The notes under the pieces are model-generated. The model had not been told where the DNA came from and did no database searches. It saw only the letters and a list, made by a program, of their open reading frames with translations. A program made the position numbers and the translations under genes. Below are positions 1,551 to 27,022 of a stretch of 64,000 bases of DNA, piece after piece. Position 1 is the first letter of the stretch. Every line of letters begins with the position of its first letter. The stretch is from Myxococcota bacterium. GTDB lineage: Bacteria > Myxococcota > JACRCW01. Location of the stretch: assembly GCA_040752415.1 (NCBI GenBank), contig JBFMGU010000002.1:1-64000 (forward strand). The letters are read 5' to 3'.

Positions 1551-1748
1551 GTTGAAGTCGCCCCCGGGGCGCGCCCACTGTTGGGCGGCGCCAGGCCGTC
1601 CCGAACCAATTGCCACCCGCCACACCCGGCAGATGGGCCCCATGAAATTTTGCGGCCCCTAGATACACCGCGCATTGCGTGCATGCCAACGACTGGTTTA
1701 TGTGAAAAGCGTTCGCGGTGATCGCAGAGCACATTCCGGGGGTTGTGT

Positions 1749-2510
1749 ATGAACTTCCTGCGCGCGCACCTCATGCGTTGCGGGCTGACGGCGGCGCTGC
1801 TGCTCGCCTGTACGCCGGAGCCAGCCAACCCCCCGGCCCCGGCCGCGGTCTGCACGGACACCTGCGAGTCGCTGGGCCACGACTGTGGCACGGTGTGCGG
1901 GGTGGCCTGCGGTGGTTGTGAGGAGGGGCAGGCGTGCCTCGGGGGGCACTGTCGCTGTGCTCCCAGCTGCGGAGAGGACTCCTGCGGCGCCGACGACGGC
2001 TGCGGCGGAACCTGCCCGTGCGCGGGGGCCACCTCGTGCCTGGAGTGCCCGCTGCGCCTGGTGCTGGTGGACCAATGGGATGACGGCGTGGCGGTGGCGC
2101 GCGTCACGGTGGCGCTGGAGAGCATGGCGTCGGGAAGCGGGGACGTGCTGGCGCGGGTGGCGGACCTGCGCTTCTCCGGCGGGCCGGGGCTGCGCTTGAC
2201 CGCCGCGCAGTTGGGGCCCGCGCTCCGGGAGGCGCGCAAGGAGCTGCACCGCTTTGCCCGGACCAACCTGCCCTTCGAGCAGCTTGAGGACGGGACCTGG
2301 CGCATCCTGGTCCGCCCGCGCACCATCAACCCCGACGTGCCCCCGGGCCGCTGGCTCACCATGACCTGGGAGCGCACTGGCCCCGCCGACGGCGCCCCGG
2401 TCACCGTCTCGCTGGTGCGGCGCCCCCAGCTGCTGGCGCCCGCCGCCGCCGACAGCGCGCTGCAGGCCACCCCCTACGACCGTCCCCTGACCATCTCGGT
2501 GCGGCGATGA
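1749..2510 (+). CDS. Lipoprotein with Cys-rich linker and C-terminal cohesin-like beta-sandwich
   Basis: Lipobox LLLAC and CGxxCGxC repeats; C-terminal ADLRF..LRLTAAQLGPALREARKEL..WRILV..INPDVPPGRWLTMTW resembles the cohesin pattern; stop overlaps next start (ATGA at 2507). Confidence 0.75.
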   Translation: MNFLRAHLMRCGLTAALLLACTPEPANPPAPAAVCTDTCESLGHDCGTVCGVACGGCEEGQACLGGHCRCAPSCGEDSCGADDGCGGTCPCAGATSCLECPLRLVLVDQWDDGVAVARVTVALESMASGSGDVLARVADLRFSGGPGLRLTAAQLGPALREARKELHRFARTNLPFEQLEDGTWRILVRPRTINPDVPPGRWLTMTWERTGPADGAPVTVSLVRRPQLLAPAAADSALQATPYDRPLTISVRR

Positions 2511-5500
2511 ACCCGCGTCCCTTCCTCCGCGTCGTGCCGTTGCTGCTGCTCGTCGTGGCGCCGGGCGTGGCCCGGGCTGCGCCGCTGGGGGTGACGGAGC
2601 TGGATGCGTTGGCCCGCCACCTGGACTGTCGCGACGCGTGCGGCGCCGGCCCGGCCCAGGACTACCAGGTGTGCGTGGATGCCTGCGGCGTCGTCGATCC
2701 GGCCTGGGAGAAGGACGGCGTGCCCGGTGTCACGCGTACCGACCAGTGGCTGGCCGCGCTGGAGGTCGCCGACGCCGGGCGCGGGGTGGAGATCTGCTAC
2801 CGGGCCGGCGGCACCGTGGTGGTGCCCGCGGCGTTGTGCCCCGGCGCGCTGTGCCAGGCGCTGCCCGCGTGCTCGGACGCGCAGTGCGCCCTGGATGAAC
2901 CGAGTCGACCCGCCGCCTGCCTGGACCCGGTGTGTGAGCTGCGCCCGGCCCGCACCGCCGCGGACTGCGCCGACGCCGACGCCGACGGCATTCCCGCCTG
3001 GCTGGAGCCCGCCGCGGGCGGCAACGACGGCGAGGCCAACACCTTCTGCCAGTCCAACCTGGACTGCGGCTTCTCCTCCACCTGCGCGTACGACGCCAAC
3101 CTGGGGGCCAGCCACTGCGCCCCGCGCGCGTGCGGGACGGCGGGGTGCACCGCCTTCCACCTGGAGCTGGTGGCCTCCGACGACCAGCAGGTGCTGATCC
3201 AGTTGGTCTACGACTACTCGCCCGGCCCGGCCCGCGTGCTGGACCTGCTCATCGACTACGACCGCACGTCGCTGGCGCTGGCGGAGTCCCGCCCCCTGCC
3301 CAACCTCACGGAGTACGGCAAGACCCTCCACGTCACCCACCTCTCCAACGGCGTGCTGCGCCTGGTGGTGATCTCCACGGATTCCGACGACCCCATCCGC
3401 GCCGGCCCGCTGGTGGAGCTGGTGTTCCAGCGCGTGGGCCCCGAGGGCAGCCGCGTCGGCTTCGTGAATGACGACGAAACCCAGGTCAACGCGGTGGCCC
3501 CGCTGCAGGGGAGCGAGGACACGCAGGAGCAGCTGGCGGACGACGCGTTGTGGGGCGCCCCGGTGGACGTCCCCGCGCGCGCCGACGACGCCGGCGAGCG
3601 GGTGCTGCTGTGGTACGGCTTTGACACCGCGGACGCGCCGCTGACGCTGGAGCAGGTTCCCGACGCCGAGGAGCTGTGCGGCCGCGTGGCCTCGTGCGCG
3701 CAGGAGCAGGACCCGGTGGCGCGGGGGCGCCACGTGGCGCGGCTGGACACGCTGCAGTCGGGCTTCATCTCCGTGAGCGCCAGCGTCCCGGGCGTGGCGC
3801 GCGGCGCGGTGGTGCTGGACGGGCACAACAACCACCTGCGCCTGCCGGTGCACGCCCTGGAGCCCTACGACCCCACCGGCCAGAGCTTCTCCTTCTCCAC
3901 CTGGTTCTACACGGAGGGCAACAGCAGCGACGAGGCCGTCACCACGCCGCAGGTGCTCTTCTCCCACCTGGCCGCCGACGAGCGGACCCACTTCGGCCTC
4001 CTCTTGGAGCCGGGCAGCGACGCAGACCACTGGACGCTCTCCTTCTTCCAGGGCGACCTGCTGGCGCTCTCCTCCCTGCAACGCACGCCCGTGGCGGTGG
4101 ACTTCCCCGTCCTCACCTGGCACCACGTGGCCTTCACGCTGGACGGGCACACCGGCGTGACCGCGCTCTACTGGGACGGCGCCGCGGTGGCGTCCACCAC
4201 CTTCCCGGCCTCCCCGCCCGCCATCTCCTGCCCGGGATTCCAGCGCGGCAGCGACGTGGTGCTGCACGAGGAGGGCGCCATCCTGGGCGGGCGGCCGCCG
4301 GAGGCCATCGTGCTCGGGGTGCGCGAGGGGCCGCAGTACCAGCTCCAGCGCATGGACCCCGAGGGGCTGGCCACCGCCACGGTGATCTCCAACCCGCAGG
4401 CCTCGTTCGAGGACCCGGACGTCATGCCGCTGATTGGCAAGGTGGCCTACGTCTCCAACCTCAGCGGCGCGTACGAGGTGTGGATCGCCGACCTCGACGG
4501 TGGGAACGCACAGCAGGTGACGGTGGGATTCGGCGAGGCCACGCTGGGCACCGGGGCGCACCGCCCGCGCTGGGCGCCCGACGGCAGCGCGCTGATCTTC
4601 GAGAGCAACGCCTTCAGCGTGCCGTTCGACCACAACGTGGACAAGGCGGTGCAGCTCTACTTCGTGGGCTACGACCCCATCCAGGGCAAGGTCCGCATCC
4701 CGCTGGATGCCGGCGGCACCGCCGAGCAGCTGGACTACAACGCGCACGCCCAGCAGCGCACGCTCTCCGCCTACCAGCTCACGCGCGGTGAGGAGAACCA
4801 CGGCAACGTGCACTGGCTGCGGGGCGCGGAGGGCGGCACGCGCGGGGACATCGTCTTCGACGTCACCGACGAGCGGTACAAGGGCGGCACGCTGCACCGC
4901 ATGCTCATCCCCCAGAACATCCGCGAGGCCAGCTCCTCCGTCATCCCGGGGCTGGGCCTGGCCTCCGAGGAGCTGAGGCTGCTGGGCGCCAAGCACGTGG
5001 TGCGCGCCGGGCCGCAGGGCGGGGAGTGGTCATACCTGCTCTACGCCGCGTGGCAGGTGGGCTACGAGACGTCCACCCAGTTCCAGGCGGAGGTGGTGGA
5101 GGCGGGGAGCACCGCCACCGTCACCGTGCGCCACGTGCCCAACGGCTACGACGCCAACTGCTGGGACCTCAACCACAACCACCTGCCTCCCGCGCGCGAC
5201 GGGCGCGACGCCGCCGAGGACGCCAACGGCGACGGCGCGTGGAACACCCAGGATTGCCACCCCGTGGCGGTGGACGACCTCTTCCTGGCCTTTGACCCCA
5301 CGCTGTTCGTCCCGCGGGTGAGCGCCGCCGACTCCGCCGCGGCCAGGCAGAACACCGTCCTGGCGCCCACGGGCGTGGACAAGGACCTGCGCCTGGGTGA
5401 GTCGTTCTCCGCCACCGGCGCGTACGTGCGCGTGGAGATCACCAGCCCGCGCAATGGCCTGCCCATCCCCGCCGGCGTGGTGGCGCGCATCAAGCTCGAC

Positions 5501-8500
5501 CGTCGCCAGCCCGGGGCGCCCACCACGCCCATGGAGATGAGGAAGCGGGGCGCCACCTCGCGCGTGCTGCTGCAGGACCTGCTCTCCGCGGGAGCGCCGC
5601 AGGCCGTGTCCCTGGGCGACGTCCTGGACGACGTGGAGGCGGCCGCCTTCTCTCCCGACGGCACGGGGCTGTTGCTGTACGGCAGGTCGCGGGCGCGGCC
5701 CGTGGTGGTGCGGACGCGCTCACTCACCGACGCCTCCCAGGGCGTGCGCATCCGCTCCGACGTCAAGAGCGTGCGCGGCCTGTCCTGGACACGGGAGCAG
5801 CGCTACTTCCCCTGCAACTGGGTGGGCGGCGTGATGCACCCCATCCAGAAGACCATCATGATGGGGCTGCGCGGCGCGCTGGATGAGCTCAAGCTCCACG
5901 CCGGCGTGCGCGACCCCGACGCCATCCTCTCCGAGTCCGCCCTGGGCCATGAGCGGCTGCAGGAGGAGGGGCGCGACGGCGCGCTGGACGGACAGCTGCA
6001 GGGATGCGTCCTCACCTCCGACTGCCCGGCGTTCCACCTGTGCGTGGCGGGCGCGTGTCGCATGGTGGAGTGCAGCCCGGAGGACCCCTACGCCTGCGCC
6101 GCCGAGGGTGGACGCTGCACGCTGCGGCCCATCTCCGTGGAGCAGGAGCAGGCCGGCGTCGACGGGTACCGCTGGGTGTGTGCCGCGGACTGCGAGGTGG
6201 ACAACCAGTGCTTCACCCAGTCCTGCGGCGCGGGGCCGTGCCGGTTCTGCGAGGTGGCCACCGCCGCGTGCGTGGAGTGTCGCGACAGCATCCAGGACTA
6301 CGGGGCGTTCACCATCCGCTCCATCGAGGGCTGCCCGGACCGCAACAGCTTCCAGTGCGCGGCCGGCGCGTGCGAGACGGAGTGCTACACCTTCCGCGAC
6401 GGGCAGAGCATCTACCGCTGCGACCCGGCGCTGGAGTTCTGCCAGGCGGGACGCTGCGCCACGTTGGAGTGGGACTGGCCGGACTTCGCGCCCGCCTCGC
6501 TGCTGGGCCTCACCGAGACCATCTACGAGGAGCTGCCCGACGCCGTGCGCACCGTGGCGGTGGGCGAGCAGAGCACCATCCGCTTCAAGGCCTACGGCAA
6601 GGGCGACCGCGCCCAGCCCCCGGAAGTGCTGGTGGAGGCCCGGGCCGCGGGCAGCAACGTGGCGCTCTACGGCGGCAACTGGTTCGAGGTGGGGCGCGTC
6701 ACGGTCCACAACCGCACCCGCAACGAGGCCGACGCCAACCCCTACCTGCTCCACGTCAGCCATCCCATCACCGACGTGCGCCTGCGGCTCGTCCACACGC
6801 CCTACCAGAACCTGGAAGCCGCGGCTTCCGGCCTGGGCGCGCGGGACAAGGACTTCTGCGTGGCCGACGCCAAGGTGACGGCGGAGACGGGCGGTGAGCC
6901 CCTGGACCAGAGCGCCTGCATCCACCGCCCGCCCGGCTCGATCCAGCACCTGGGTTACGCCGCGGAGGTCCCGTTTGACGACGTGGCCGCCGACTGCGCC
7001 GCGCACGCCCGTCCCGGCTGCCCCAACGTGCTGGACCCGCTGCGGGTCTACCTGGTCGACGGGCGTCCCACGGTGCTGGTGCTGGAGATGCGCGTGGACG
7101 GCACCGCGGTGCCGGTGGAGGCCAACCCGGTCTGCTCCTACGAGGGCACGCTGGACCCGGTGCAGCCGGGGGGCGCGCCGCGCAAGCTGTTCTACGGCGA
7201 CATCCGCCAGGAGAAGTCCCCCACCGCCGCGCGCTTCTGCCAGGACAACCCCACCGCCTGCGCCCAGGCCACGGACCTCCTGGACTTCAGCGCGCGCAGC
7301 GGCGGCGCCTACGCGCTGCTCAACTGCAACTACAACGACCCCGGCACCGGCGCCCTGGCGCGCGTGGACTACCTGGTGCCGCCCTACCAGCAACCGTTCA
7401 ACGCCGGCGCGGTGCGGGAGACGGGCGCGGGCTGCATGGTGGAGCTGGACGCGGTGCGCCGCGAGCAGTGTTACGAGTTCATGGGCGGGCAGGTCACCAT
7501 GGACCCCCTGGCGGCGCCGCTGGCGGTGTACCAGGTCCTGGAGTTCACGCAGCAGCGCAGCTTCGGCCATGACCGCAACTTCACGCCGGTGGAGCTGCCG
7601 CGCTTCCCGCTCACCGTGGCGGTCAGCGGCTACCAGGGCGGCGGCCTGCAGCTCCGCAACCGCGCCGACGTGCTCACCATCTCCGGCAGCGGGGAGGTCA
7701 CCGCCACCTTTGCCAACACGCTGCGGCTGGGGGAGCGCTGGCACGTCGAGGTGGAGCGGCAGCCCACGGGCGGCTCCGCCCCGCGCTACTGCGTGGTCGA
7801 CGCGCAGGAGGCGCGCGGCGCCATGCGCCAGGGCGGCGCCACCGTCCACGTGAGCTGCGGGCCGGCCCAGCGCGTGGGTGTGCAGCTCAGCGGCCTGGTG
7901 GCGGACCGCGCCGCGCTGCGCCTGCGCACCAACGCGTACGTGGCGGGCGCCAACACCCGGGCCGGGACCGTGGAGCTGGACCTGTGGGCCAATGGCACCT
8001 CCTCCTTCCCGGTGCTCCTCCCCGTCGGCGCCACCTACCTCGTGGAGGTGCGCGACCAGCCGCGCGTCCCCAGCCAGCTGTGCACCGTCAGCAACGGCAG
8101 CGGCGCGGTGCTCCCCGACCAGGCTCCCCTGGCCCGGGTGGTCTGCGTGGAGACGCCCCCGCGCCTGCTGGGCGGGCGGGTGGACGGGCTGGAGGGCCAG
8201 GGGCTCATCCTCTCCAGTGCCACCACCGACGAGCTGCTCACCATCTCCGCGGCCGGGCCCTACGCCTTCTCGCGCCGCATCCGCCCCGGCCTGCCCTACC
8301 AGGTGGCCATCCACCAGCAGCCCACCAACCCGGCCCAGCGGTGCGAGGTGGAGGGCGCCACCGGCGTGATGCCCAACCAGGATCACCTGGCGGTGCGCGT
8401 GGCCTGCGCCACCCTGCCCACCTACGCCATCAAGGTGAACGTGGGGAACCTGCGCGGCCGCGACCTGGTGCTCAGCCTCAACGGCTCGGACACCATGGCC

Positions 8501-9679
8501 CCCTCCCGCGACGGCGTGTACGCGTTCACCCGCCGCCTGCTGGACGGCGCCAGCTACGACGTCAAGGTCACCTCCCAGCCCCACACCCCGCTCCAGGACT
8601 GCACCGTCATCAGCGGCACCGGCACGGTCAACGCCGCCGACGTGCAGGACGTCCAGGTGGTCTGCGCCGACCACGTGGAGAACCCGGTGGCCTTCGCGGT
8701 GCACGTGGAGGTCTCGGGGTTGCTGGGCGACTTCATGCGTCTCTCACTCAACAACGGCACCCAGCGCATGGACGTGACCCGCAACGGGCGCTTCACCTTC
8801 AACAACCCGCTGTCCGACAACAGCAACTTCGTCGTGGAGGTGGCGGAGCAGCCCAGCTCTCCCGCGCAGACCTGCACCGTGGCGGCGGGGTCCGGACGGA
8901 TCACCGGCGCGGACGTGGTGGCGCAGGTCAGCTGTCCCTCGGCGCGCCTGAACGTGGCGCTGGGTGGCGGCGGCAGCGGGCAGGCGGTGCGTGGCGTGTT
9001 GCTCAATCCGGCCGGTGCGCCGGTGGGGGAGCAGCTGCCGGATGCCAGCTGGCCGTCGTCGGGCGCGACGCTCCGCGTGGTGGAGGCGGGACGCACCGCG
9101 GAGGGCAATCCTCCCAACGCGGCCCTCGCCACCGGCTCCCACCGGCTCTACCTGTGGGTGAACTCCGACGGCAGCAACAACGGCGGCGTCCCCACCTTCC
9201 AGCCCGGCGACGCCGCGGTGGTCAAGACGGTGAGCATCCCGGGCACCGCGCCGGTCACCGTCAACGTCAGCACCTCCGAGCTGGCCGCCACCATCCACGA
9301 GCCGGTGCTCATCAAGGCCCCGCCGGACATCGACGCCAAGGCCTCGGTGGTCTGCTACTGGACCGCCACCACCGGAGGCGCGGTGGAGCTGCCCGCGGTG
9401 GCACCGCTGGGAACCAGCGCGGTGGCCTGCTCCGACGAGCTGGCCCCCTGCTTCCGCTACCGCACGGGCGCGGGAGCGGTGGCCGGCAGCACCAACATCC
9501 ACGCGCCGCTCCTGGCGGGCACCTACGACCTGACGTGCTGGTACGACCAGGGCGGGCCGGGCGGCGCACCCGACAACATCTTCAACGCAGGAGACCGCGT
9601 GGGCTTCACGCCGGGCGTCAACGTCGACGGCCCCGGCGTGCTCACTTCCCAGGCGGTGGTCACGCTCAACCCGCCCTGA
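2507..9679 (+). CDS. Giant secreted multidomain protein (cohesin-like x2, LamG/ConA-like, TolB/PD40-like propeller, Cys-rich repeats, 5 Ig-like repeats)
   Basis: 2390-aa ORF with signal peptide ending VARA. LamG motifs SFSFSTWF, WHHVAFT, LYWDG, GALDELKL; PD40-like VAYVSN..EVWIADLDG, PRWAPDGSALIFES, FSPDG; five ~85-aa repeats SGL.G..L.L...QP..P.Q.C.V..G.G...V.C at ~7600-8940. Confidence 0.85.
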   Translation: MNPRPFLRVVPLLLLVVAPGVARAAPLGVTELDALARHLDCRDACGAGPAQDYQVCVDACGVVDPAWEKDGVPGVTRTDQWLAALEVADAGRGVEICYRAGGTVVVPAALCPGALCQALPACSDAQCALDEPSRPAACLDPVCELRPARTAADCADADADGIPAWLEPAAGGNDGEANTFCQSNLDCGFSSTCAYDANLGASHCAPRACGTAGCTAFHLELVASDDQQVLIQLVYDYSPGPARVLDLLIDYDRTSLALAESRPLPNLTEYGKTLHVTHLSNGVLRLVVISTDSDDPIRAGPLVELVFQRVGPEGSRVGFVNDDETQVNAVAPLQGSEDTQEQLADDALWGAPVDVPARADDAGERVLLWYGFDTADAPLTLEQVPDAEELCGRVASCAQEQDPVARGRHVARLDTLQSGFISVSASVPGVARGAVVLDGHNNHLRLPVHALEPYDPTGQSFSFSTWFYTEGNSSDEAVTTPQVLFSHLAADERTHFGLLLEPGSDADHWTLSFFQGDLLALSSLQRTPVAVDFPVLTWHHVAFTLDGHTGVTALYWDGAAVASTTFPASPPAISCPGFQRGSDVVLHEEGAILGGRPPEAIVLGVREGPQYQLQRMDPEGLATATVISNPQASFEDPDVMPLIGKVAYVSNLSGAYEVWIADLDGGNAQQVTVGFGEATLGTGAHRPRWAPDGSALIFESNAFSVPFDHNVDKAVQLYFVGYDPIQGKVRIPLDAGGTAEQLDYNAHAQQRTLSAYQLTRGEENHGNVHWLRGAEGGTRGDIVFDVTDERYKGGTLHRMLIPQNIREASSSVIPGLGLASEELRLLGAKHVVRAGPQGGEWSYLLYAAWQVGYETSTQFQAEVVEAGSTATVTVRHVPNGYDANCWDLNHNHLPPARDGRDAAEDANGDGAWNTQDCHPVAVDDLFLAFDPTLFVPRVSAADSAAARQNTVLAPTGVDKDLRLGESFSATGAYVRVEITSPRNGLPIPAGVVARIKLDRRQPGAPTTPMEMRKRGATSRVLLQDLLSAGAPQAVSLGDVLDDVEAAAFSPDGTGLLLYGRSRARPVVVRTRSLTDASQGVRIRSDVKSVRGLSWTREQRYFPCNWVGGVMHPIQKTIMMGLRGALDELKLHAGVRDPDAILSESALGHERLQEEGRDGALDGQLQGCVLTSDCPAFHLCVAGACRMVECSPEDPYACAAEGGRCTLRPISVEQEQAGVDGYRWVCAADCEVDNQCFTQSCGAGPCRFCEVATAACVECRDSIQDYGAFTIRSIEGCPDRNSFQCAAGACETECYTFRDGQSIYRCDPALEFCQAGRCATLEWDWPDFAPASLLGLTETIYEELPDAVRTVAVGEQSTIRFKAYGKGDRAQPPEVLVEARAAGSNVALYGGNWFEVGRVTVHNRTRNEADANPYLLHVSHPITDVRLRLVHTPYQNLEAAASGLGARDKDFCVADAKVTAETGGEPLDQSACIHRPPGSIQHLGYAAEVPFDDVAADCAAHARPGCPNVLDPLRVYLVDGRPTVLVLEMRVDGTAVPVEANPVCSYEGTLDPVQPGGAPRKLFYGDIRQEKSPTAARFCQDNPTACAQATDLLDFSARSGGAYALLNCNYNDPGTGALARVDYLVPPYQQPFNAGAVRETGAGCMVELDAVRREQCYEFMGGQVTMDPLAAPLAVYQVLEFTQQRSFGHDRNFTPVELPRFPLTVAVSGYQGGGLQLRNRADVLTISGSGEVTATFANTLRLGERWHVEVERQPTGGSAPRYCVVDAQEARGAMRQGGATVHVSCGPAQRVGVQLSGLVADRAALRLRTNAYVAGANTRAGTVELDLWANGTSSFPVLLPVGATYLVEVRDQPRVPSQLCTVSNGSGAVLPDQAPLARVVCVETPPRLLGGRVDGLEGQGLILSSATTDELLTISAAGPYAFSRRIRPGLPYQVAIHQQPTNPAQRCEVEGATGVMPNQDHLAVRVACATLPTYAIKVNVGNLRGRDLVLSLNGSDTMAPSRDGVYAFTRRLLDGASYDVKVTSQPHTPLQDCTVISGTGTVNAADVQDVQVVCADHVENPVAFAVHVEVSGLLGDFMRLSLNNGTQRMDVTRNGRFTFNNPLSDNSNFVVEVAEQPSSPAQTCTVAAGSGRITGADVVAQVSCPSARLNVALGGGGSGQAVRGVLLNPAGAPVGEQLPDASWPSSGATLRVVEAGRTAEGNPPNAALATGSHRLYLWVNSDGSNNGGVPTFQPGDAAVVKTVSIPGTAPVTVNVSTSELAATIHEPVLIKAPPDIDAKASVVCYWTATTGGAVELPAVAPLGTSAVACSDELAPCFRYRTGAGAVAGSTNIHAPLLAGTYDLTCWYDQGGPGGAPDNIFNAGDRVGFTPGVNVDGPGVLTSQAVVTLNPP

Positions 9680-9714
9680 CGGCGGCACTCGCAGTCCTTT
9701 GTGGAGGTCAAGCC

Positions 9715-11733: not shown

Positions 11734-11786
11734 GCCGCCTGGTGCCTGGCGCAGTTGGGACGTCCCGGCCCGGAGATGGAGGGGTG

Positions 11787-12323
11787 ATGGAGCGCGTGGT
11801 GGGAAGATGGTGTCGAGCGCTGAGCGTGACGGTGGTGACGGCGTGCGCGGTGGCGCCGTCGGGAAACGGCTCCGGGTCGGTTGACGCCCCGCGGCCCGCC
11901 ACCAGCGAGGCCACCCCCGGCACCGTGGCGGCTCCCGCCAACCCGCCCGCCCGTGTCGAGGTGGCGCCCCGCGCCCGGACCTTTGCGCTGCTCCTCAACC
12001 TCCCACCCACCACCGTGCCGCCGCGCATGGTGGAAGCGTGGCTGGAGGTGGAGGAGGGATGGCGCATGACGTCGTCACAGGCGGGCCGGGTGGCGCAGGA
12101 GGCGGACAAGTCGGTGCGTGTGCAGGAGCGCAACGGCCGGCTGCGGGTGGTGGTGCTGTCGTCGGGGAATCTCAACACGCTGGCCAACGGGCCGCTGGCG
12201 CTGCTGGCGCTGGAAGGGGACGGCGGGTCCGCGGTGCCGCTGCGCGTGCACCCGCGCTCCAACCTGGCGCCCGGCGGCGCGGTGCGCCCGGGTGAGCTGG
12301 CGGTGGAGGAGGTCTCGCCATGA
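11787..12323 (+). CDS. Small lipoprotein with cohesin-like domain
   Basis: RBS GGAGG at 11778; MERVVGRWCRALSVTVVTAC (lipobox-like); Pro-rich linker; PRMVEAWLEV..AGRVAQEADKSV..RLRVVVLSSGNLNTLANGPLALLAL parallels the domains in 1749..2510 and 2507..9679. Confidence 0.7.
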   Translation: MERVVGRWCRALSVTVVTACAVAPSGNGSGSVDAPRPATSEATPGTVAAPANPPARVEVAPRARTFALLLNLPPTTVPPRMVEAWLEVEEGWRMTSSQAGRVAQEADKSVRVQERNGRLRVVVLSSGNLNTLANGPLALLALEGDGGSAVPLRVHPRSNLAPGGAVRPGELAVEEVSP

Positions 12324-15300: not shown

Positions 15301-17539
15301 GCAGCTGCACCAGACCCGCAATGCGCTGGGCGTGGTGCCGGAGCAGGTGTTCTTCGAGAACAGCGACCCCTCGCTGGTGAACTGGCGCTCCTACCTGCGC
15401 ATCCTCGCCGGTGACGACGGGACGGGCGGCCTGCTGGCGGAGGCGCAGTCCCAGATCGACAGCGCGGTGGCCAACCTGCAGGCCTCGTTGGCCGACGTGG
15501 ACGCGCTGGAGGACCGCATCTTCGAGCTGAACAACGAGTACGAGGGGGCGCTCATCGAGCTGTGCGGCGACGAGGAAGCCTCCGCGCCCTGCAACGCGCT
15601 GTGGCAGAAGGTGGCCGCCTGGGAGCAGAACGGGACGTCGCGGGCGGACATCCTCAGCCAGATGGAGGCGTTCATCCAGAACCGCTGCGGCAGCAGCGAC
15701 CCCCTCGCCGTGCTCCTCGGAGCCGCGCCCGCCTCGGCTTCCTCGGAGGAGTGCGAGTGGGTCAAGAGCGAGTTCGTCAGCGAGTACAACGCCCAGGGGC
15801 CCGCCTGCCCCCTCAGCGCGGCCAAGCACAACATCATGGTCCGCGGAGAGCGGCGCGCGTGCATTGGCGGCGCCATGGGCGGCCTGCTGCTGGAGAAGGA
15901 GGGACTGCTGCGCGAGCGGGAGGGCATCCGCCGCGACATGATGACGCTGCTCAAGCGCCTGGAGGAGTTCGCCGAGACGCGGGATTACGTGGAGGGGATC
16001 CACATCGGCCAGCGGCTGAGCCTCATCCTGGTGCGGATCATCGAGCTGGTGCTCACCTTCGTGGACAAGGCCAACAAGACCGCCTCCGAGGTCGCCGACG
16101 AGGTGGCGGAGAGCGCCAACTGCATGCTCATTGCCGGCCTGGCCGCGGGCACGGACTGTCCGCAGAGCTTTGCGTCGGGCGCCAGCAAGGTCTCCGTGAC
16201 GGTCGCGCGCACCGTGGGGGAGCGCGTGGTGGAGACGCTCAAGGAGCAGGCGGTCAACCTCTTCGAGATCGCCAACATGGAGTTCGACTTCGCCATCGAG
16301 GACCGCGAGGCGCAGCGCGAGATGACCGAGATGTCCTACGAGAGCTACGCGCTGGTCACCGCCTACATCGCCAACATCCAGGCCTCGCTGGCGGTGGAGG
16401 CGGGCATGGCGGAGACGCGCTTCCTGGCCAAGGACGCCGCCGCCGGGCTCAACGACTCCCTGAGCCTGCTGCTGGACCACCTCGTGGGGCGGGAGAGCGG
16501 CAGCGTGCTGGTGGGCAACTTCCTGGTGCGGGAGAGCTCCGCCACCTTCCGTCGCGCCCTGCAGGTGGCCTACCGCATGGTGCTGGCGTTTGCGCATCGC
16601 TACAACCTCAGCGTCGCGGAGCGGAACCAGCTCATTGCGCAGGTGATGCAGGCGGTCACCGTCGAGGACCTGCAGGCACTGGTGCAGCTGCTCATCGAGC
16701 GGGAGCGCGGCTACTGCGGCCGGGAAGCCATTGATTGCGACGCGTTCAACAACCTCAACGTGCTGCGCCTGAGCCTGCGCGACCTGCTCTTCCCGCAGCT
16801 CCGCGACCTGGTGGACCCCGCCACGGGGCGCGTGGTCACCCGGGGTGAGCAGTTCCACAACATCATCACCTCCCCGCCGTTCCTGCGTCGCCGGGTGCGC
16901 GGGGCGTGGGCCGTGGACCAGGTGGAGCTGCCCTTCACGGTGCTGCTGCAACAGCGCGACCCCGGCGACACGCGCGGCTGGCTGCTCAACCCCACCCAGT
17001 GCAACCACATCCTGGACGGCGACCCCACGGCCGGCGCGCTGGAGGCCGGCACGGTGGCGGTGAACGTGGTGGGACAACGACTGGGCCCGGCGGAACGCGC
17101 CATCACCTACGAGCTCGGTCGCGGCCACGTGGACCAGATCCGCGCGTGCCACGCCGAGTCCGTGCAGACGCAGATCGGTTCGCTCCCGGAGCTGGACTAC
17201 CCCATCCGCACGCAGGTGGTGGGTTACTCGTCGGAGAGCGCGCAGGGCCAGCAGACGCAGCCACCCACCTACTTCGTGCGCTCCGGCGAGCTGAACGCGT
17301 GCCTCAACCAGGCGGAGTCCGCCGGGCGGCTGGACGGTGGCTCGTGCTGGCACTTCTTCGGCCGGGATCGCAGCCTCGCCTCGCCGGACTACACGCTCTA
17401 CATCCCGCTGGCGATTGACGGCGAGAACACCAGCAACTCGTGGATCACCGGCGCGGGCCTGCCCGAGTCGCAGCGTCCCGTCATCGAGGACGTGGTGCTC
17501 TACCTCCGCTACCGCACCCGTCCCATCTCGGAACCGTGA
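12320..17539 (+). CDS. Large secreted protein with Cys-rich N-terminus, dockerin-like Ca loop and TcA-like coiled-coil/hydrophobic hairpin (putative pore-former)
   Basis: 1739-aa ORF, signal peptide ending AQA; DQDGDGEFDIFD loop; long helical heptad regions flanking LSLILVRIIELVLTF..CMLIAGLAAGTDC; C-terminal FRRALQVAYR...SLRDLL...DVVLYLRY; ATGA overlap with upstream gene. Confidence 0.75.
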   Translation: MMRSLAVGALWLVAALAQAQVTSVPNLCDDAGGLGSSCFTDDDCAFRPYATRCVEHVQGDPASRRCEAPCEADEAHPGTPDHAACALGETCLASLGDGTFYCAPTRFRMDLNLVDQCVAHFLAGTGPTLGSNNACSLEANLNQMLDQDGDGEFDIFDVDGCVQAFLHEPACNPDTGTCPTVDMVYCNADEDCGAGLFCDEERHFCTRECGVVASREPGLGALERACAGRLKTCDHAQGRCVDANLEQYRCSVDRECPVGAYCLVGRCAARCSRALDCPDSGWYCAPNNTCRVLPSPEENAGNSFDPRNYAVLFGTNQATLTPLENHTEVPLLIMDLTTKREVLDNPSVGFGYRLEVTYAFKQDPRCFRSPDEWTLEDREECLIEPAEEFVQLASPFGTVFAVGRPKVAFTLNPAAAERLSPGKYVATVNAIFDNGNQDTVQVRFNKTTASGEYVGSLSVVLGAPENQLNAGTLLDLAIKMDIKEDQLVRWNELLAAENLAATSQDYTDITQGQLIHAHLHGNDAVAFALPGAESPADNEIPLKGIYSPQLGIMRLVGVVEIPADFCLGEEGACADASGLQVRNLFGRTIRRILFFNGTYDDVGRRFLGNYRERVSGLSPGGELTLEGGFVLSQTSADETGLQLSAPLLPSGASLVDFPHLPEVLAGIDADVATWCQGSEAAAAVGRFTSASSYLAYLGSEDFPIFPDVVEFKQLIQDGIDNLQDDDSRAQDVLTLHEYLAGRIVLCGEEEAAAGAPLSSSAPACVDEARLRCALSLYRRAVVGGLAGTRYLGNPGANPYPLFCSSTLPAEGCHPSPTELPFVATLLEHNRFHQELAQATKFQADQDLSDAFFALYRNRLNPFTQGAALNFKADKLERANRRYDDLTALVLEPAAASVLFDWRMWAFEARGQEWLRQMHVMAADRMDALAELVDLRRRIYARDGERQQLLGEHLAQMEYLQQVYLMALQREWQGEDFKYGGEAGLILERLKVILKQLHQTRNALGVVPEQVFFENSDPSLVNWRSYLRILAGDDGTGGLLAEAQSQIDSAVANLQASLADVDALEDRIFELNNEYEGALIELCGDEEASAPCNALWQKVAAWEQNGTSRADILSQMEAFIQNRCGSSDPLAVLLGAAPASASSEECEWVKSEFVSEYNAQGPACPLSAAKHNIMVRGERRACIGGAMGGLLLEKEGLLREREGIRRDMMTLLKRLEEFAETRDYVEGIHIGQRLSLILVRIIELVLTFVDKANKTASEVADEVAESANCMLIAGLAAGTDCPQSFASGASKVSVTVARTVGERVVETLKEQAVNLFEIANMEFDFAIEDREAQREMTEMSYESYALVTAYIANIQASLAVEAGMAETRFLAKDAAAGLNDSLSLLLDHLVGRESGSVLVGNFLVRESSATFRRALQVAYRMVLAFAHRYNLSVAERNQLIAQVMQAVTVEDLQALVQLLIERERGYCGREAIDCDAFNNLNVLRLSLRDLLFPQLRDLVDPATGRVVTRGEQFHNIITSPPFLRRRVRGAWAVDQVELPFTVLLQQRDPGDTRGWLLNPTQCNHILDGDPTAGALEAGTVAVNVVGQRLGPAERAITYELGRGHVDQIRACHAESVQTQIGSLPELDYPIRTQVVGYSSESAQGQQTQPPTYFVRSGELNACLNQAESAGRLDGGSCWHFFGRDRSLASPDYTLYIPLAIDGENTSNSWITGAGLPESQRPVIEDVVLYLRYRTRPISEP

Positions 17540-20500
17540 TGCCGTCCGCCCGGAGCACTTCCATGGCAGGCAAGACCCCCTTCATCGCCGTGGCCCGGCC
17601 GGCACTGTTGGTCCTGGCGGCCCAGGCGTGCACCCAACCGCCCTGGCAGCCCCCGCCGGAGGAGGCGCCCCCGCCGGTGGAGGAGTCGCTGACGCTGGGC
17701 GGGGCCGCGCCAGGGGCGGCGTTGTCCCAGGGCGCGCACGACGTGGTGGTGGTGGTGGAGCGCGCCGTGCACAGCCGCCACGCAGACGTTGTTGCGCGCG
17801 CGCGCCTGGCCGCCGACGTGGTGGAGGCCCTGCGTCCGGTGGCGGCGGCGGCGTCCCTGTCCGGCGCGCCCATGCGGCTGGGCGTGGTGGCCTCGGGCAG
17901 CGGCGAGGGCGGCGTGGAATGGCTCATGCCGCTGACGCCCACCGGGCCGGAATGGAGCGTGGCGCAGGAGACGCTGCGGGCGCTGGAGCCGGAGGGGGAG
18001 GGCACGCTGAGCGGCGGCATGGAGCAGGCGCTGGCGGAGCTGCTGGGCCCGCGGGCCCGCGCGCGCGCGCTGCCCGTGATGGTGGTGGTGGCCAACGAGG
18101 TTGCGCGCGTGTCGACGTCGGTGGGGCGGCTGAGCGCGGAGGCCGGGGCCATCCTCCTGCACGTGGGTGGTGCGCCGCCGGAGGGCTGGGACCGCCTGGG
18201 CTCCCACGCGCACGTGCTGCGGCTGCCGGAAGGCGGCGACGCGCTGGCGCGCCTGGGTGACCTGCTGCTGTTGTCGCACGACCCGCTCACGGTGACCCTG
18301 CGCGGCCCGGAGGGCTGGACCCTGGGACTGCGGGCCTACGACGCGGACGGCAACGTGGTGGCGCGGAGCGACGGGCCGGGACCCCGGCTGGAGGCGACCG
18401 TGGACTGGTTCCCCGGCGTGGTGGCGCAGAACCTGGAGTTGCGCGGCGTGGGCACCACCCCGGAGGGGCGCGTGGTGGAGGTGACCCACCCGGTGCATGC
18501 CCTGCCGCAGCTCCGCCAGCCCGTGGTGGTCGAGGTTTCTCCCACGCTGGCCCAGCCGGGAGACCGGGTGCGGCTCCGTGGCCGGTTCTTCTCCCCGCGC
18601 CCCGGCGGAAACCGCGTCTTCATGGGCGTGGAGGTGGACGCCACCGCGCTCTCCAAGGGCGAGCTGGAGCTGGAGGTCCCACCCGAGGCCACCGACGAGG
18701 CCCTCACCGTCTTCTCCGACGGCCTCGCCGGCGACGCGGTGACGTTGCTGCGGGTGGACAACGACGGTGACGACATCCCGGACAACGACGAGCTGTTGGC
18801 GGGCACCGATCCGCGCCGCGCGGATAGCGACGGTGACGGCGTCCGCGACGACGCCGACGAGTGTCCGCTGGAGCTGCAGGGCGCGGGCAACGTGAACGAG
18901 CGCGGCTGCTCCCTGTGCACCGACGGCGAGCACAACGCGCCGAAGGAGACGGACGTGGACTGCGGTGGCGCCTGTCCGCCCTGCGCAGTGGGACTCGGGT
19001 GCAGCAACGACGCCGACTGCACCACCGGCATCTGCGTCGACGCGACGTGCCGCGAGCCCGCGTGCGACGACGGGCGTCTCAACGGCGCGGAGAGCAGCCT
19101 GGACTGCGGCGGCGGGTGTGAGCCCTGCGAGCCCGGCCGGGATTGCCGCGTGGGGAGCGACTGCGCCAGCGGCGTGTGCCAGGGCCAGCTGTGCGCCTTC
19201 CCCGGCTGCACCGACGGCATCCACAACGGCGACGAGACCGACCTGGACTGCGGTGGCCCCTGCGCCCCCTGCGCCGCCGGGCTGGCCTGCAACATCGGTC
19301 CGGACTGCGAGCACGGGACCTGCGTGGACCACGTGTGCGACGCGCCGCGCTGCAACGACGGCGTGCGCAACGGCCTGGAGACCGACGTGGATTGCGGGGA
19401 GAGCTGCGGGCCCTGCGCGCTGGGTCGGCGCTGCCTGGTGGCGGAGGACTGCGAGCTGGCGACGTGCCAGGCCGGTCAGTGCGTGCTCCCGGCCTGCGTC
19501 AACGGGGTGCTGGACAGCGGCGAGTCCGACGTGGACTGCGGCGGCGCGTGCGCTCCCTGCGACGACGGCGGGGCATGCGCTGCGGCCGGGGACTGTACCT
19601 CGCGGGTGTGCGCGGGAGGTTACTGCGCCACCGCGAGTTGCCAGGACGGCGTGGCCAACGGAGCGGAGACCGATCTGGACTGCGGCGGCCCGTGTCCCCG
19701 CTGTGGTGACGGGCTGGGGTGTGCGGCGGCCGACGATTGCGCCAGCCACGTGTGCGCCGAGGGTACCTGCGCCGCCCCCACCTGCGGCGACGGGGTGCGC
19801 AACGGCGACGAGACCGACGGGGATTGTGGCGGCGCTTGTCCAGCGTGTGCACCCGGCCGCGGCTGCGCGGTGGCGGCAGACTGCATCACCGGGTTCTGCG
19901 CCGCGCAGGTCTGCCTCCAGCCCACGTGCGTCGACGGCGCGCGTAACGGCGACGAGTCGGACGTGGATTGCGGCGGGAGCTGCCCGCCCTGTGCGCCGGG
20001 CCTGCGCTGCACCGTGCCCACCGACTGCCAGAGCGGCCTGTGCCCCACCGACGGACCCGACGCGCTCACCTGCGCCTCACCGGGATGTGCCGACGGCGTC
20101 CGCAACGGCGGGGAGGGCGACGTGGACTGTGGTGCGGTGTGCCTGGTCTGCGCGGATGGTCGCACCTGCCGCACCGGGGCGGACTGTGAGAGCCGCGTGT
20201 GCCTCATCTCGTCGGGGGAGGAGTGGGGCATCTGCCAGGCCCCGGCCTGCACCGACGGTGTACGAAACGGCGACGAGACCGACGTGGACTGCGGCGGCTC
20301 CTGCGGGGTGTGCGCGCTCGGGCAGACCTGTCGCGTGGATGCCGACTGCGAGCTGGACACCTGCCAGCAGGGTCTGTGCGTGCTGCCCCTGTGCGTGAAC
20401 GGGCTGCGTGACCTGCTGGAGGTCGACGTGGACTGCGGCGGGCCGTGCGCGCCCTGCGGGGACGGGGCCTACTGCTTCAACGGCGGGGATTGCCGCTCGT

Positions 20501-23500
20501 TCGTGTGTCGCGGGAGCCACTGCGCGGTGCCCACCTGCGGCGACGGCGTGCGCAACGGCGCGGAAGCGGACGTGGACTGCGGCGGTCCCTGCGGCGCGCC
20601 GTGCTCCGTGGGCTCGCGCTGCCGTGCGGACTCCGACTGCGACAGCGCCTCCTGCGGCGCCGACGGCTTCTGCGCCGCGCCCGCCTGCAACGACGGCCGG
20701 CGCAACGGCAGCGAGACCGCGGTGGACTGCGGCGGGGGCTGCCCGGGGTGCGCGCTGGGGCTCGCGTGCGTGGAGTGGTCCGACTGTGCCAGCGCGTTCT
20801 GTTCCGGCAACCGCTGCGTCACACCCCAGTGCGCCGACGGCGTGCGCAACGGCACCGAGACGGACACCGACTGCGGCGGCCCGTGCGCCCCGTGCGCGGA
20901 TGGCCTGCTGTGCACCGCGGGGAACGACTGCGCCAGCGGCGTGTGTCCCGACGTGGACCCCGGGGCGGGTCGCTGCGCCGCTCCCAGCTGCCTTGATGGC
21001 GTGCGCAACGGGGGCGAGTCCGACGTGGATTGCGGCGGGGACTGCGAGCCGTGCGTGGCCGGACAGGGCTGTCGCGCCGCCGCCGATTGCGTCAGCACGG
21101 TGTGCGTGGTGGTCCGGGGAGAGGGCACCTGCCGGGAGGCCGCCTGTGACGAGGGCGTGCACAACGGTGACGAGACGGACGTGGACTGCGGCGGAAGCTG
21201 CGGTGCCTGCGCTCCCGGGGCGCGCTGCCTCGGCGACACGGATTGCTCGAGCGGCCTCTGCGTGAGCACGCAGGATGGCCCACGCTGTGCCGCGCCGTCC
21301 TGCGACGACGGGGTGCGCAACGGCAGTGAGCCGGCCACCGACTGCGGAGCCAGCTGCTCCACGCGCTGCGCGGACACGGTGGCGTGTGGCATCCCCACGG
21401 ATTGCCAGAGCGGGGTGTGTTTCCAGAACCTCTGCGCCGTGCCCTCCTGCGCCGACAACGTCCGCAACGCCGACGAGTCCGACGTGGACTGCGGCGGCGG
21501 ATGCGCGGACTGCCCCGCCGGCAAGCGGTGCGGCAACGCCGGCGACTGCGCGAGCCGCGTCTGCGGGGGCGATGGGCTGTGCGCCGCGCCCACCTGTCAC
21601 GACGGGGTCCCCAACCAGGACGAGACCGACGTGGATTGTGGCGGCAGCTGCGCGCCCTGCCTGGATGGCCTGGCCTGCGTGGTTTCCGCCGACTGCGCCT
21701 CCGGTGTGTGCGCCGGCCTGGCCTGTGCCTACCCCACCTGTGACGACGGTGTGCGCAACGGCCTGGAGTCCGACGTGGATTGCGGCACGGGCTGCGGCGG
21801 CTGCCCGGTGGGCTCGCCATGCCAGGACGCGGCGGACTGCGGGAGCGGGCGCTGCCTGGCGGGGGCGTGCGTGGAGGACACCTGCGGCAACGGCGTGCGC
21901 GACGGCCACGAGGTCGACGTGGACTGCGGCGGCGCGTGTGAGCGCTGCGCAGCGGGACAGCAGTGCGGGCTCTCCGCCGACTGTGCCACCTCGTGGTGCC
22001 ACGCGGGCCGCTGTGAGCACGCGCCCTCCTGCAAGACGCTCATGTCTGCCTGGCCCCAGGCCCCGTCCGGCGTGTACCTGCTGCAGCCGCTCGGCGCGCC
22101 GGAGCCGCTCGCGGTGTCCTGCGACTTCGGCGTCGACGGCGGGGGCTGGACCTTGGTGGCCCACGCACGCGGCAGCGGCCTGACCGACGAGGCGGCGCCG
22201 TACTCGCCCGTGCTCGCCGACCCCACTGCACCGGGCAGCAGCACGGGCGTGTGGTCTGGCCTGCGCGAGCTGCTGGGGGACCGCAACACGGACGTGCGCT
22301 TCACCTGCCGGGTGCAGCCGGACCTGGTGGCGTACTCCGTCGACGTCACGGTGTACGGCGTGGATTGGTACCGCGGGATCACCGCCGGCACCGAGGCGGA
22401 GAGCTGCTTCAACGTGGTGGGCGTGACGGGCGGGGAGCCTCCGGGACGGCGCAACAACCTCACCGGCGCGGTCCGCTCGCCTGGCGACCCCTGGAACGAG
22501 AGCGGTCTGCCCGTGGGGGAACCGCAGTGCCAATCCCCTGGCAGCTTCACCGTCGACTTCGACGACCGGGGGCATGACAGCAACGAGCGCGACGGAACGG
22601 ACTGGGGTCTTGACGACGGATTCCTCAAGTGCGGGTCCGCCTACGCGCCGGCGGGGTCGTACCAGGTCTGGCTGCGTGACCCGGTGCACCCCTGTTTCAA
22701 CAACGTGCAGGACGGCACGGAGACCGGGGTGGATTGCGGCGGGACGTGCGCGGCCTGCCCGGTCCCCTGCGCCAGCGGGGAAGACTGCGGGAGCGGCGTG
22801 TGCGTCCAGGGCTTCTGCGCGGCGGCCCGGTGCGACGACGGCGTGCGCAACGCCGACGAGTCCGACGTGGATTGCGGCGGCGCGTGCGCGGCCGGTTGCG
22901 CCGTGGGCCAGCGCTGCCTGGACCCCGACGATTGCGCCGAGGGCACCTGCGAGGCGGGACGCTGCCGCGCCGCCAGCTGCTACGACCTCAGCCCCGGCCC
23001 GGGAGAGACCGACGTGGACTGTGGCGGCGGTTGTGCCCCGTGCGCCGCCGGCCGGGCCTGCGCGGTGGACGGGGACTGCACCTCCGGCTTCTGCAACGGC
23101 ACCTGCCTGGACGAGCCCTGCAGCGACGGGATCCGGGACTTCAGCGAGACGGACGTGGACTGCGGCGGCGACCGCTGCGATTCCTGCGTGGGCGGCCAGG
23201 CCTGCGTGAGCGCGGAGGACTGCGACTCCGGCGCCTGCGACGGCACCACCTGTCGCGTGCTGGCGTCGTGTTCAGACCTGCTGGACATCCCGGGCGTCCA
23301 CGCCAGCGGCGTCTACGTGCTGGGCTCCGGCGTGGCGGCGTACCGGGCGCGTTGCGACATGACCACCGACGGTGGTGGCTGGACCCTGGTGGCGGCGTCC
23401 CGGGGCGCCACGCTGCTGGACGCGGCCGGTTCGTACCACGGCGACCTGGCGCTGCTCCGGCCGCAGGGCTCGGTGCGCACGGTGTGGGACGCGCTGCGCG

Positions 23501-24066
23501 GCAGCGCCGGTGACCGCCACGACGTCCGCTTTGCCTGCCTCTCCGCGCCCAACCACGACGCCTACGACGTGGACCTCTCCTTCCATGGCACCGACTGGTA
23601 CCGCCGCATCACCGCGGGCAGCGACGCGCAGACGTGCTTCAACGAGTCCGACGGCATCAACATCTCCCTGCCCCCGCCCGCGCGGCGCAACAACCTGACC
23701 GGCACGTTCCTCCCGCGGGGGCGCGCCTGGAGCAGCGGGGAGCTGGAGGGCGAGGACGAGTGCAACGACGTGCTGGACTTCACCGTCGACTTCAACGACC
23801 GCGGCGTGGACGGCAACGACGCCGATGGCACCGACTGGGGCGAGGATGACGGCGTGGCCAAGTGCGGGCATCCCATCGAGGCGGGGGAGGGCACCTGGCT
23901 CATCTGGATGCGCGACCAGGCACCCACCTGCCGCGACGGCGTGAAGAACGGCGATGAGAGCGCGGTGGATTGTGGGGGCTCCTGTCGCCCCTGCGGCAGC
24001 GGGCTGGCTTGCGCCGCGCCCAGCGACTGCGCCTCCGGCGCCTGCGTGAGCCTGGTCTGCCAGTAG
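17539..24066 (+). CDS. Giant Cys-rich repeat protein (degenerate vWA, IPT/TIG, TSP3-like Ca repeats, 26 Cys-rich repeats, 2 fibrinogen-like domains), probable lipoprotein
   Basis: Start overlaps upstream stop (alternative starts 17536/17563); [12 protein letters not shown]-like [44 protein letters not shown]; [19 protein letters not shown] repeats; two SCxx[16 protein letters not shown] domains. Confidence 0.85.
18916..22020 (+). repeat. 21 tandem ~48-aa Cys-rich repeats (plus 4 at ~22693-23255 and 1 at ~23929-24063)
   Basis: Counted by hand from the translation; consensus CxDGVRNGxExDVDCGGxCxxCxxGxxCxxxxDCxSxxCxxxxC. Confidence 0.9.
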
Positions 24067-26840: not shown

Positions 26841-27022
26841 GGAGATCGGTTCCCTGGGGCTGTGGGCTGGTGAGGGATCAGCGCCCACGATGCTGCCAGA
26901 GGTCGATCTCGCTCGGAATGTATTCAGGTTGCGTAGAAAGTCGGGGGGTTGGTCACACGACGGATGCGACAAGGTGGGATGCGGCATGACATGTTGGCCC
27001 CATCGCGTCGGAGAGAGGTGTC

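Follow-up and report, generated by a model that had tools for sequence, protein, structure and literature searches.

A six-gene operon occupies positions 1749-24066 on the forward strand of a 64,000-nucleotide stretch of Myxococcota DNA (contig JBFMGU010000002.1), which we analysed as a whole and refer to as the window. Our analysis suggests that its products form a Sec-exported complex, tethered by lipoproteins and centred on a distant relative of TcA, the A subunit of toxin complex (Tc) toxins, and that this complex is likely used for contact-dependent attack on prey or competitors, a reading that we regard as evenly balanced. A divergent TcA-type module, cohesin-type lipoprotein anchors and lectin and fibre subunits acting in trans would be a new combination among Tc-like systems, whose mechanism beyond the fold we infer. 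The first gene, G1 (1749-2510), encodes a lipoprotein of 253 amino acids (aa) whose Cys-rich linker leads to a cohesin-like domain at the C-terminus (about residues 117-249), and is followed by G2 (2507-9679), encoding a secreted giant protein of 2390 aa, and G3 (9715-11733), encoding a secreted, fibre-like protein of 672 aa. G4 (11787-12323) specifies a lipoprotein of 178 aa with a disordered linker and a predicted cohesin-fold domain (residues 59-175, nucleotides (nt) 11961-12311), G5 (12320-17539) the secreted, TcA-like protein of 1739 aa, and G6 (17539-24066) a further lipoprotein of 2175 aa. Stop and start codons overlap as ATGA between G1 and G2 (2507-2510) and between G4 and G5 (12320-12323), as read in the DNA, and a TGATG overlap joins G5 to G6 (17537-17541); gaps of 35 and 53 nt separate G2 from G3 and G3 from G4. 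An initial annotation, made from the sequence alone, had described six co-directional genes overlapping at 2507, 12320 and 17539, each with a signal peptide or lipobox and none with a recognizable catalytic motif. Coordinates and DNA confirm the layout, and reading the translations by eye located signal peptides in G2, G3 and G5 and lipoboxes in G1 (LLLAC), G4 and G6. Pfam and NCBIfam scans found no enzyme family in any of the six proteins, and G1, G4 and G5 matched nothing in either database. The neighbouring genes on both sides (3-1658 and 24159-27020) lie on the opposite strand, as judged by third-position GC, and thus delimit the six-gene block.

G5 starts with a Sec signal peptide and contains 54 Cys, its N-terminal half being Cys-rich. 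We folded its last 1100 residues (640-1739) with AlphaFold2 (AF2) using an alignment of 41 rows, which gave a model with a predicted local distance difference test (pLDDT) score of 77.3 and a predicted template modelling (pTM) score of 0.67. In this model, a helical region is followed by a hairpin and then by a beta domain (residues 1479-1735). The hairpin consists of a 78-residue helix (1184-1261) and a 137-residue helix (1291-1427), joined by a tip loop (residues 1262-1290, nt 16103-16189) that holds the family motif CxxIAGxAxGTDC, in which C1268, G1273, G1277 and C1280 are almost invariant. Within G5, conservation is highest in the tip motif and the C-terminal domain. When the model was searched with Foldseek, all 20 matches at E ≤ 1e-3 were TcA subunits (TcdA1, XptA1/A2, TcdA4, YenTcA and TcaA-TcaB), with a best E value of 3.1e-7 and alignments of about 1000 columns. 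Superposition with VIA-align likewise placed TcA in rows 1-17 (Z-scores 13.0-9.8), with G5 residues 1001-1734 colinear with TcdA1 2007-2516, which we take to be the linker, pore-forming and TcB-binding domains. The beta domain alone superposed on 6l7i_A, a fragment comprising TcdA1 2327-2516, with a Z-score of 7.2 and a root-mean-square deviation (rmsd) of 4.1 Å over 149 residues. A wide VIA search independent of Foldseek ranked TcdA4 first of 48,161 chains (Z 11.7), and both the hairpin and the beta domain were covered by TcA rows alone (410-445 aligned residues). The C-terminal 740 or so residues of G5 are therefore predicted, on AF2 modelling and structure comparison, to form a TcA-type translocation module (residues 1001-1734, positions 15320-17521, forward strand) that belongs to a divergent relative of TcA. 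The initial annotation had called G5 a TcA-like protein with a coiled coil and hydrophobic hairpin, and the predicted hairpin and beta domain agree with this and with a pore-forming fold of the TcA kind.

The operon also appears to encode the means of anchoring such a protein. We aligned G4 with 29 homologues encoded directly upstream of G5 (alignment A2) and found the lipobox Cys to be invariant in all 30. The AF2 model of G4 has a pLDDT of 84.4, with values of 86-98 per 10-residue block over residues 61-178. In Foldseek the first 21 listed rows were all cohesins or cohesin-like proteins, the best E value being 2.0e-3 and none falling below 1e-3, while VIA-align superposed the model on the type I cohesin 5nrk_A with a Z-score of 10.6 (rmsd 2.4 Å over 106 residues) and returned cohesin entries throughout rows 1-41 (Z 10.6-7.6). 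As modelled, the G4 domain is a cohesin-type beta-sandwich. Because the C-terminal domain of G1 and residues 212-322 of G2 (nt 3140-3472) are homologous to the G4 domain, cohesin-like modules occur three times in the operon, twice on small lipoproteins. This homology was detected with hhalign against A2, both for the G1 family (alignment A4, 11 sequences; probability 99.4%, E 1.4e-21, 118 columns) and for the G2 segment (probability 98.2%, E 3.6e-14). The two small membrane-anchored cohesin-like proteins first proposed for this locus are thus recovered, G4 through the fold of its model and G1 through its homology to G4.

A candidate ligand for the G4 domain lies near the N-terminus of G5, where two helices (residues 107-123 and 158-168) flank a single canonical DxDxDG loop of EF-hand type (D146-D157, identified by pattern). 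This dockerin-like segment spans residues 107-168 approximately (positions 12638-12823, forward strand); its helix 107-123 carries no Ca-loop. Across 41 sequences, D115, D146, F153 and D157 do not vary, and the stretch MDLNL[LV]DxC is among the three most conserved of the G5 family. We predicted the complex of G5 residues 21-660 with G4 residues 55-178 using custom alignments and three controls. The interaction prediction score from aligned errors (ipSAE) was 0.74 for G4-G5 (0.75, 0.66 and 0.74 in individual runs) versus 0.00 for the best control; among solved complexes 116 of 157 reach the mark used, and among mismatched pairs 2 of 215, counts that are approximate with custom alignments. At least 8% of contacts agreed between runs, and the partners had pLDDT values of at least 82. 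The predicted interface comprises residues 110-123, 158-166, 227-229, 272 and 286-288 of G5 and residues 73, 75, 80-83, 111, 113, 122, 124-129, 159-165 and 167 of G4, and it falls on invariant residues of both families, including R80, A161 and P162 of G4. The model supports binding of the dockerin-like segment of G5 by the G4 cohesin, in a pair that looks like cohesin-dockerin. The dockerin-like loop noted in the initial annotation therefore lies within a predicted contact.

Relatives of the G5 module provided a line of evidence that is independent of structure models. A weak G5 match in a genome of the same class (G002) led to an open reading frame (ORF) of 2061 aa on contig C118, with its own lipobox. 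Homology to the G5 family covers the last 620 or so residues of this ORF (576 columns in hhalign, E 6.6e-17, probability 98.8%), and the ORF also has the tip motif in common with G5. Directly upstream and on the same strand lies a gene for a 2106-aa protein with SpvB, FG-GAP, TcdB_toxin_midN and RHS domains, which is a TcB/TcC-type fusion. A profile of the G5 C-terminal module (A5) matched 377 representative proteins (clusters at 50% identity) at E ≤ 1e-3, of which 289 remained at 1e-10 and 94 at 1e-30; the distant matches are proteins of 1300-2250 aa, matched near their C-termini. The same profile matched 9 of 41 related genomes. Six co-directional pairs of A5 matches and TcdB_toxin_midN genes, 9-13 kb apart on the same contig, were found in three genomes (G002:C118, G001:C44 twice, G001:C120, G014:C13 and G014:C56), with a partial case at G007:C46. 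Since its members pair in this way, the superfamily with the G5 module includes A-type partners of RHS cocoons in this phylum, while the G5 branch sits in a cohesin-lipoprotein cluster instead. Most matches of the G002 kind (type 2) do not extend into the final 100 or so positions of the G5 profile, where conservation within that family is greatest. We also considered whether G2 and G5 represent a split TcA and rejected this: no match to either family was found for the first 1419 residues of the TcA-like protein of G002 (best E 0.009 over 27 residues against G2; probability 38% against the G5 family). Directly downstream of the G002 pair is an ORF for a 1067-aa Cys-rich, lipoprotein-like protein with no Pfam match (L061:2783-5986, reverse strand).

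Several observations weigh against a TcA- and cohesin-based reading of the operon. G5 has no match in Pfam (E ≤ 0.01), NCBIfam, PHROG or the sequences of the PDB, where its family profile reached a best E value of 0.064; a search of the ESM Atlas gave scores below 0.9 and no family. None of 20 sampled distant A5 relatives matched a TcA family of Pfam. PF18276 (TcA_TcB_BD) had no match in the genome, and control genomes gave none either. The G5 tip loop was modelled at a pLDDT below 50, the G5-TcA matches have template modelling scores of 0.15-0.21 with a large global rmsd, and generic coiled-coil hairpins (SMC, dynein stalk, colicin Ia) reached Z-scores of 10-11 in the wide VIA search versus 9.7-11.7 for TcA. 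Pfam Cohesin (PF00963) matched just one of the 30 G4 homologues (E 0.014), and the G4 profile matched no cohesin among PDB sequences. G5 has no Dockerin_1 (PF00404) match in Pfam and carries one loop, not a duplicated pair; as cohesin-dockerin complexes have already been solved, the G4-G5 prediction may have passed through likeness to them. No SpvB, TcdB or RHS family was found in the six proteins or in 22 other ORFs of the window. TcB-like genes occurred in four of seven G5-bearing and 14 of 39 G5-less genomes, which are related to one another and may be incomplete, and thus show no clear co-occurrence with G5. Finally, all genomes in the comparison are metagenome-assembled genomes (MAGs).

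One could conclude from these points that the fold resemblances are coincidental and that unrelated secreted proteins merely travel together, as sequence comparison does not connect them with cohesin, dockerin or TcA families and the structural evidence all comes from predicted models. Coincidence would, however, have to account for two independent folds that each return one family almost exclusively, for a predicted G4-G5 interface on invariant residues of both families, and for the adjacency of G5 relatives to TcB/TcC-like genes, which owes nothing to the models. We therefore consider it very improbable.

A different question is whether G5 works with a cocoon. It could be the A component of a full Tc-like holotoxin, with a cocoon encoded elsewhere docking on the C-terminal beta domain and the operon supplying the translocator and targeting parts only. 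The same genome encodes two giant TcB/TcC-like fusions with SpvB, FG-GAP, TcdB_toxin_midN and RHS domains, one of 3666 aa on contig C512 (L059:6173-17173, forward strand) and one of 2512 aa on C301 (L060:5620-13158, reverse strand) that ends in Tox-REase-7, a toxin domain of nuclease type, and no large gene adjoins either in the stretches examined. A holotoxin assembled in trans would also fit the alignment of the G5 beta domain with the TcB-binding domain and the module relatives that adjoin such cocoon genes. A third TcA-like gene of this genome, however, could be the true partner of the C512 and C301 fusions. It lies on C19 (L063:12625-18477, reverse strand), is of type 2 and encodes 1951 aa, 33% identical to the G002 TcA-like protein over 1625 residues; since it starts 840 nt from the contig end, its upstream partner would be unassembled. 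TcB-like genes, common without G5 (14 of 39 genomes), were not found in three of the five other G5-bearing genomes, which may be incomplete, and most type-2 matches miss those last, best conserved positions of the G5 profile. We regard a holotoxin in trans as improbable and, given the lack of a clear link between TcB-like genes and G5 and the possible C19 partner, rate a cocoon-free mode above it.

The conserved unit around G5 became apparent when we compared loci. The same 11-Mb genome carries a G5 paralogue, 58% identical, on contig C504, where homologues of G1, G2, G3, G5 and G6 stand in the same order with 47-57% identity. The only other genome of family f1 in the set examined, G001, has two colinear clusters (L016 and L017), so that the colinear arrangement was seen four times in two genomes (all four G5-type loci of f1) with protein identities of 31-58%. 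No G4 homologue was detected by tblastn in C504 or in G001:C101; in the latter locus (L017), a G4-type ORF was located by inspection. Among 5.8 billion protein clusters, the G5 family comprises 45 clusters at E ≤ 0.001, all full-size, annotated as hypothetical and without a Pfam domain. A collection of species-representative genomes yielded 41 loci. Every one lies in a MAG, and the labels are Myxococcota, Myxococcales, Polyangiales or 'Deltaproteobacteria', with a few unspecific ones ('Proteobacteria bacterium', 'uncultured proteobacterium'), consistent with the myxobacterial origin assumed for the system. A full 10-kb upstream flank was available for 21 MAG loci. All of these have G2 upstream of G5, 19 have G3 (missing in L024 and L036), and a G4-type lipoprotein ORF was located in 19, the exceptions being L029, with frameshifts, and L044, with a run of N. 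Counting all loci, 29 have such an ORF immediately upstream of G5. G1 was present wherever the flank reaches far enough (L024, L031 with two copies, L032, L036, L044 and L051). G6 homologues are restricted to f1 clusters (L016, L017 and C504), which places G6 outside the conserved core. The conserved unit is thus G1-G5, with a sixth, lectin-rich slot that varies between lineages. Homologues do co-occur as a conserved cluster, and of the six-gene unit first proposed the G1-G5 core stands, while G6 is f1-specific and fills the variable slot. In L021, L026 and L030, two tandem G3-like fibre genes lie upstream of G5 in place of one. Downstream of the L044 cluster (18291-21177, forward strand) are genes for an OmpA-family protein and a tetratricopeptide repeat protein and a second G4-like ORF (tblastn 19701-19973).

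The remaining proteins of the operon carry mostly binding or structural domains. G2 is the most conserved partner of the cluster, with a mean column identity of 47% in its alignment (A6). It contains a Laminin_G_3 domain (residues 438-571, Pfam E 5.1e-10), a sub-threshold PD40 match, a Cys-rich centre and repeated units of about 90 aa in its C-terminal part; its profile gave only weak beta-propeller matches in the PDB (best E 0.014), and a single-sequence search of solved structures returned nothing significant. The N-terminal 390 or so residues of G3 are conserved and its C-terminal part is variable, tblastn matches elsewhere covering mainly the N-terminal part. Here, the extreme C-terminus (residues 614-672, nt 11554-11730) matches ApeC (PF16977, E 6.9e-19, 68.9 bits versus a cut-off of 26.5), in part, over profile positions 73-133 of 208. 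ApeC is reported to bind peptidoglycan (PMC9585378, PMC8361754). PDB sequences and PHROGs gave no assignment for G3, and the ESM Atlas returned scores below 0.9 and no family for its N-terminus. PHROGs also gave nothing for G5 and only families of unknown function for G2 and G6. G6 has an N-terminal region followed by about 22 Cys-rich repeats of about 48 aa (223 Cys by pattern count), one TSP3/EF-hand-type loop at residue 429 and two GGGWT stretches (NF040941 GGGWT_bact, E 1.7e-21, 75.9 bits versus a cut-off of 30) at residues 1497-1540 (nt 22027-22158) and near 1922-1958 (nt 23302-23412); Pfam Fibrinogen_C also matches (31.4 bits versus a cut-off of 22). The fibrinogen-like heads that the initial annotation had seen in G6, on a long Cys-repeat stalk, are thus supported.

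Elsewhere, the sixth slot is filled differently. In five loci it holds a PPC lipoprotein of 900-1000 aa (33-53% mutual identity over full-length alignments), and in L023 (15811-25695, forward strand) a protein of 3295 aa whose N-terminus matches Dockerin_1 (E 3.1e-6) and which further contains a PPC domain and nine C-type lectin domains. No other curated dockerin match turned up in the vicinity of these clusters. TSP3/RCC1 proteins occupy the slot in other loci. In L047, a TSP3 and RCC1-repeat protein is encoded about 2.7 kb downstream of the G5 homologue (18186-22568, forward strand), with sub-cut-off ADP-ribosyltransferase matches at its C-terminus (ART E 2.3e-4, ADPrib_exo_Tox E 4.4e-4).

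This inventory bears on a further possibility, that the operon encodes an adhesion or lectin assembly only, in which cohesin lipoproteins display glycan binders for attachment to surfaces, prey or kin and the G5 module is a rigid stalk or an oligomerization device rather than a channel inserted into membranes. All other identifiable domains are indeed binding or structural (LamG, ApeC and fibrinogen-like here; C-type lectin, PPC and TSP3 elsewhere), Pfam and NCBIfam reveal no cargo or enzyme in the operon, and long coiled-coil hairpins are common structural elements. However, conservation within G5 peaks in the tip motif and C-terminal domain, both of which are shared with relatives that adjoin toxin-cocoon genes. 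This pattern is more in keeping with a translocation function that has been retained than with a spacer. A purely adhesive role therefore seems to us rather unlikely.

We propose the following mode of action for the TcA-type, lipoprotein-tethered complex. The G4 cohesin would clamp the dockerin-like segment near the N-terminus of G5 and so tether G5 to the outer membrane, and G1 might handle G2 likewise, by analogy. The two pairs coupled in translation are G1/G2 and G4/G5, which would fit one anchor per large protein. G3, with its variable tip (here the ApeC piece), and the product of the variable sixth gene (here G6) may supply target recognition in trans. The complex would bind the glycan or peptidoglycan surface of another cell, and G5 oligomers would then insert their helical tips into the target membrane. 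Since the cluster has no gene for a TcB/TcC cocoon, the complex would act as a pore or carry other cargo, for which G2 is a candidate. Such a device could serve Myxococcota for contact-dependent attack on prey or competitors. In its most specific form, this would amount to a previously unrecognized branch of Tc systems: an outer-membrane-held TcA-type injector with a cohesin-dockerin-like clamp and exchangeable lectin and fibre targeting, used by predatory Myxococcota as a cocoon-free contact weapon, with G2 perhaps as cargo or trigger. We put this fuller version forward tentatively and consider it doubtful as a whole.

Known Tc toxins are soluble insecticidal or pathogen toxins that Proteobacteria and Firmicutes release by lysis, and in YenTc separate chitinase subunits decorate the TcA shell. 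The resemblance of G5 to TcA lies in the predicted order of channel hairpin, tip loop and TcB-binding-like beta domain and in the TcB/TcC-like genes that adjoin relatives of its module. According to PMC6795518, the Tc toxins' machinery for the pore and for translocation is conserved and their shell variable, and a conserved translocation part with a variable remainder is also the pattern of G5. Unlike TcA, G5 has no sequence match to any TcA family of Pfam, carries a Sec signal peptide and 54 Cys, and has 1739 aa compared with 1873-2540 residues for the whole-TcA chains among the Foldseek matches. Its N-terminal half is unrelated, even to type-2 relatives, and its operon has no TcB/TcC gene. 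In PMC10847048, classical Tc toxins are described as depending on a type 10 secretion system for release by lysis. TcA uses glycan receptors, as stated in PMC7264150; receptor binding here apparently falls to separate proteins, so that targeting would occur in trans in place of the built-in receptor-binding domains of classical TcA. G5 is also set apart by its host: a 2021 census assigned 96.4% of TcC proteins to Proteobacteria and 3.2% to Firmicutes, and its main text contains neither 'Myxo' nor 'Deltaproteobacteria' (PMC7861908). As with YenTc, glycan-binding accessory proteins would be added in trans to a TcA-type pentamer. The accessories differ in being lectin and fibre proteins, with attachment proposed to occur via cohesin-like modules.

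The likeness to cohesin-dockerin systems is similarly partial. The G4 model can be superposed on cohesins of types I, II and III as well as on the non-cellulosomal cohesin of Archaeoglobus (2xdh, Z 10.1), the helical, Ca-loop-bearing segment of G5 is predicted to bind it, and the sixth-slot protein of one related locus has a true Dockerin_1 match. However, most rows give 7-15% identity between G4 and solved cohesins, the minimum being 2%, with no family-level Pfam match, and G5 has one canonical loop where dockerins have a duplicated F-hand pair. In contrast to cellulosomes, the cohesins here are on lipoproteins of a diderm bacterium, and the operon has no carbohydrate-active enzyme. A third comparison is with the teneurin-like and RHS toxins of Myxococcota, which belong to the same phylum and are likewise large surface proteins targeted by Sec and signal peptidase II; the present operon differs in having no YD/RHS shell or toxin domain. 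PMC13018210 reports that teneurin-like toxins have no obvious delivery machinery, and a functional link between them and the operon is a possibility. Among the matches listed in literature searches on Tc toxins and TcA, Myxococcota and cohesin-dockerin lipoproteins, we did not find this architecture described; the listed papers on Tc toxins from 2018 onward all concern classical ones.

If our reading is correct, a TcA-like superfamily that is invisible by sequence (the 377 representatives), one part paired with RHS cocoons and another residing in a cohesin-lipoprotein cluster, would widen the evolutionary range of Tc systems. It would suggest how the many RHS and teneurin-like toxins of Myxococcota that have no delivery route (PMC13018210) might be delivered. 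It would also be a natural example of a design that leaves targeting to separate modules, and it would place an assembly of the cohesin-dockerin type on a diderm surface, outside polysaccharide degradation.

The surroundings of the operon were examined as well. A scan for promoters and terminators 3' of G6 found nothing. To the left, divergent from G1, lies an open-ended gene (3-1643, reverse strand) encoding collagen triple-helix repeats and six DUF7151 stretches. To the right, an S8 peptidase with a PPC domain is encoded at 24159-26987 (reverse strand). We considered whether this peptidase is kin to the PPC lipoprotein of the sixth slot and rejected the idea, as the lipoprotein has no homologue in the window, C504 or the G001 loci. 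The initial annotation had reported no genes of type VI secretion systems, extracellular contractile injection systems, TcB/TcC or phages in the window; Pfam scans of the 22 other ORFs agree, save for a holin-X-type ORF (Phage_holin_3_6) at 44768-45262 (forward strand). Four large ORFs with coding-type third-position GC and no Pfam family lie on the reverse strand (32499-35117, 51845-54199, 54224-55291 and 55129-57426). Finally, the window encodes a bacterial Peptidase_M2 of the angiotensin-converting-enzyme family (40200-42098, forward strand, E 4e-103).

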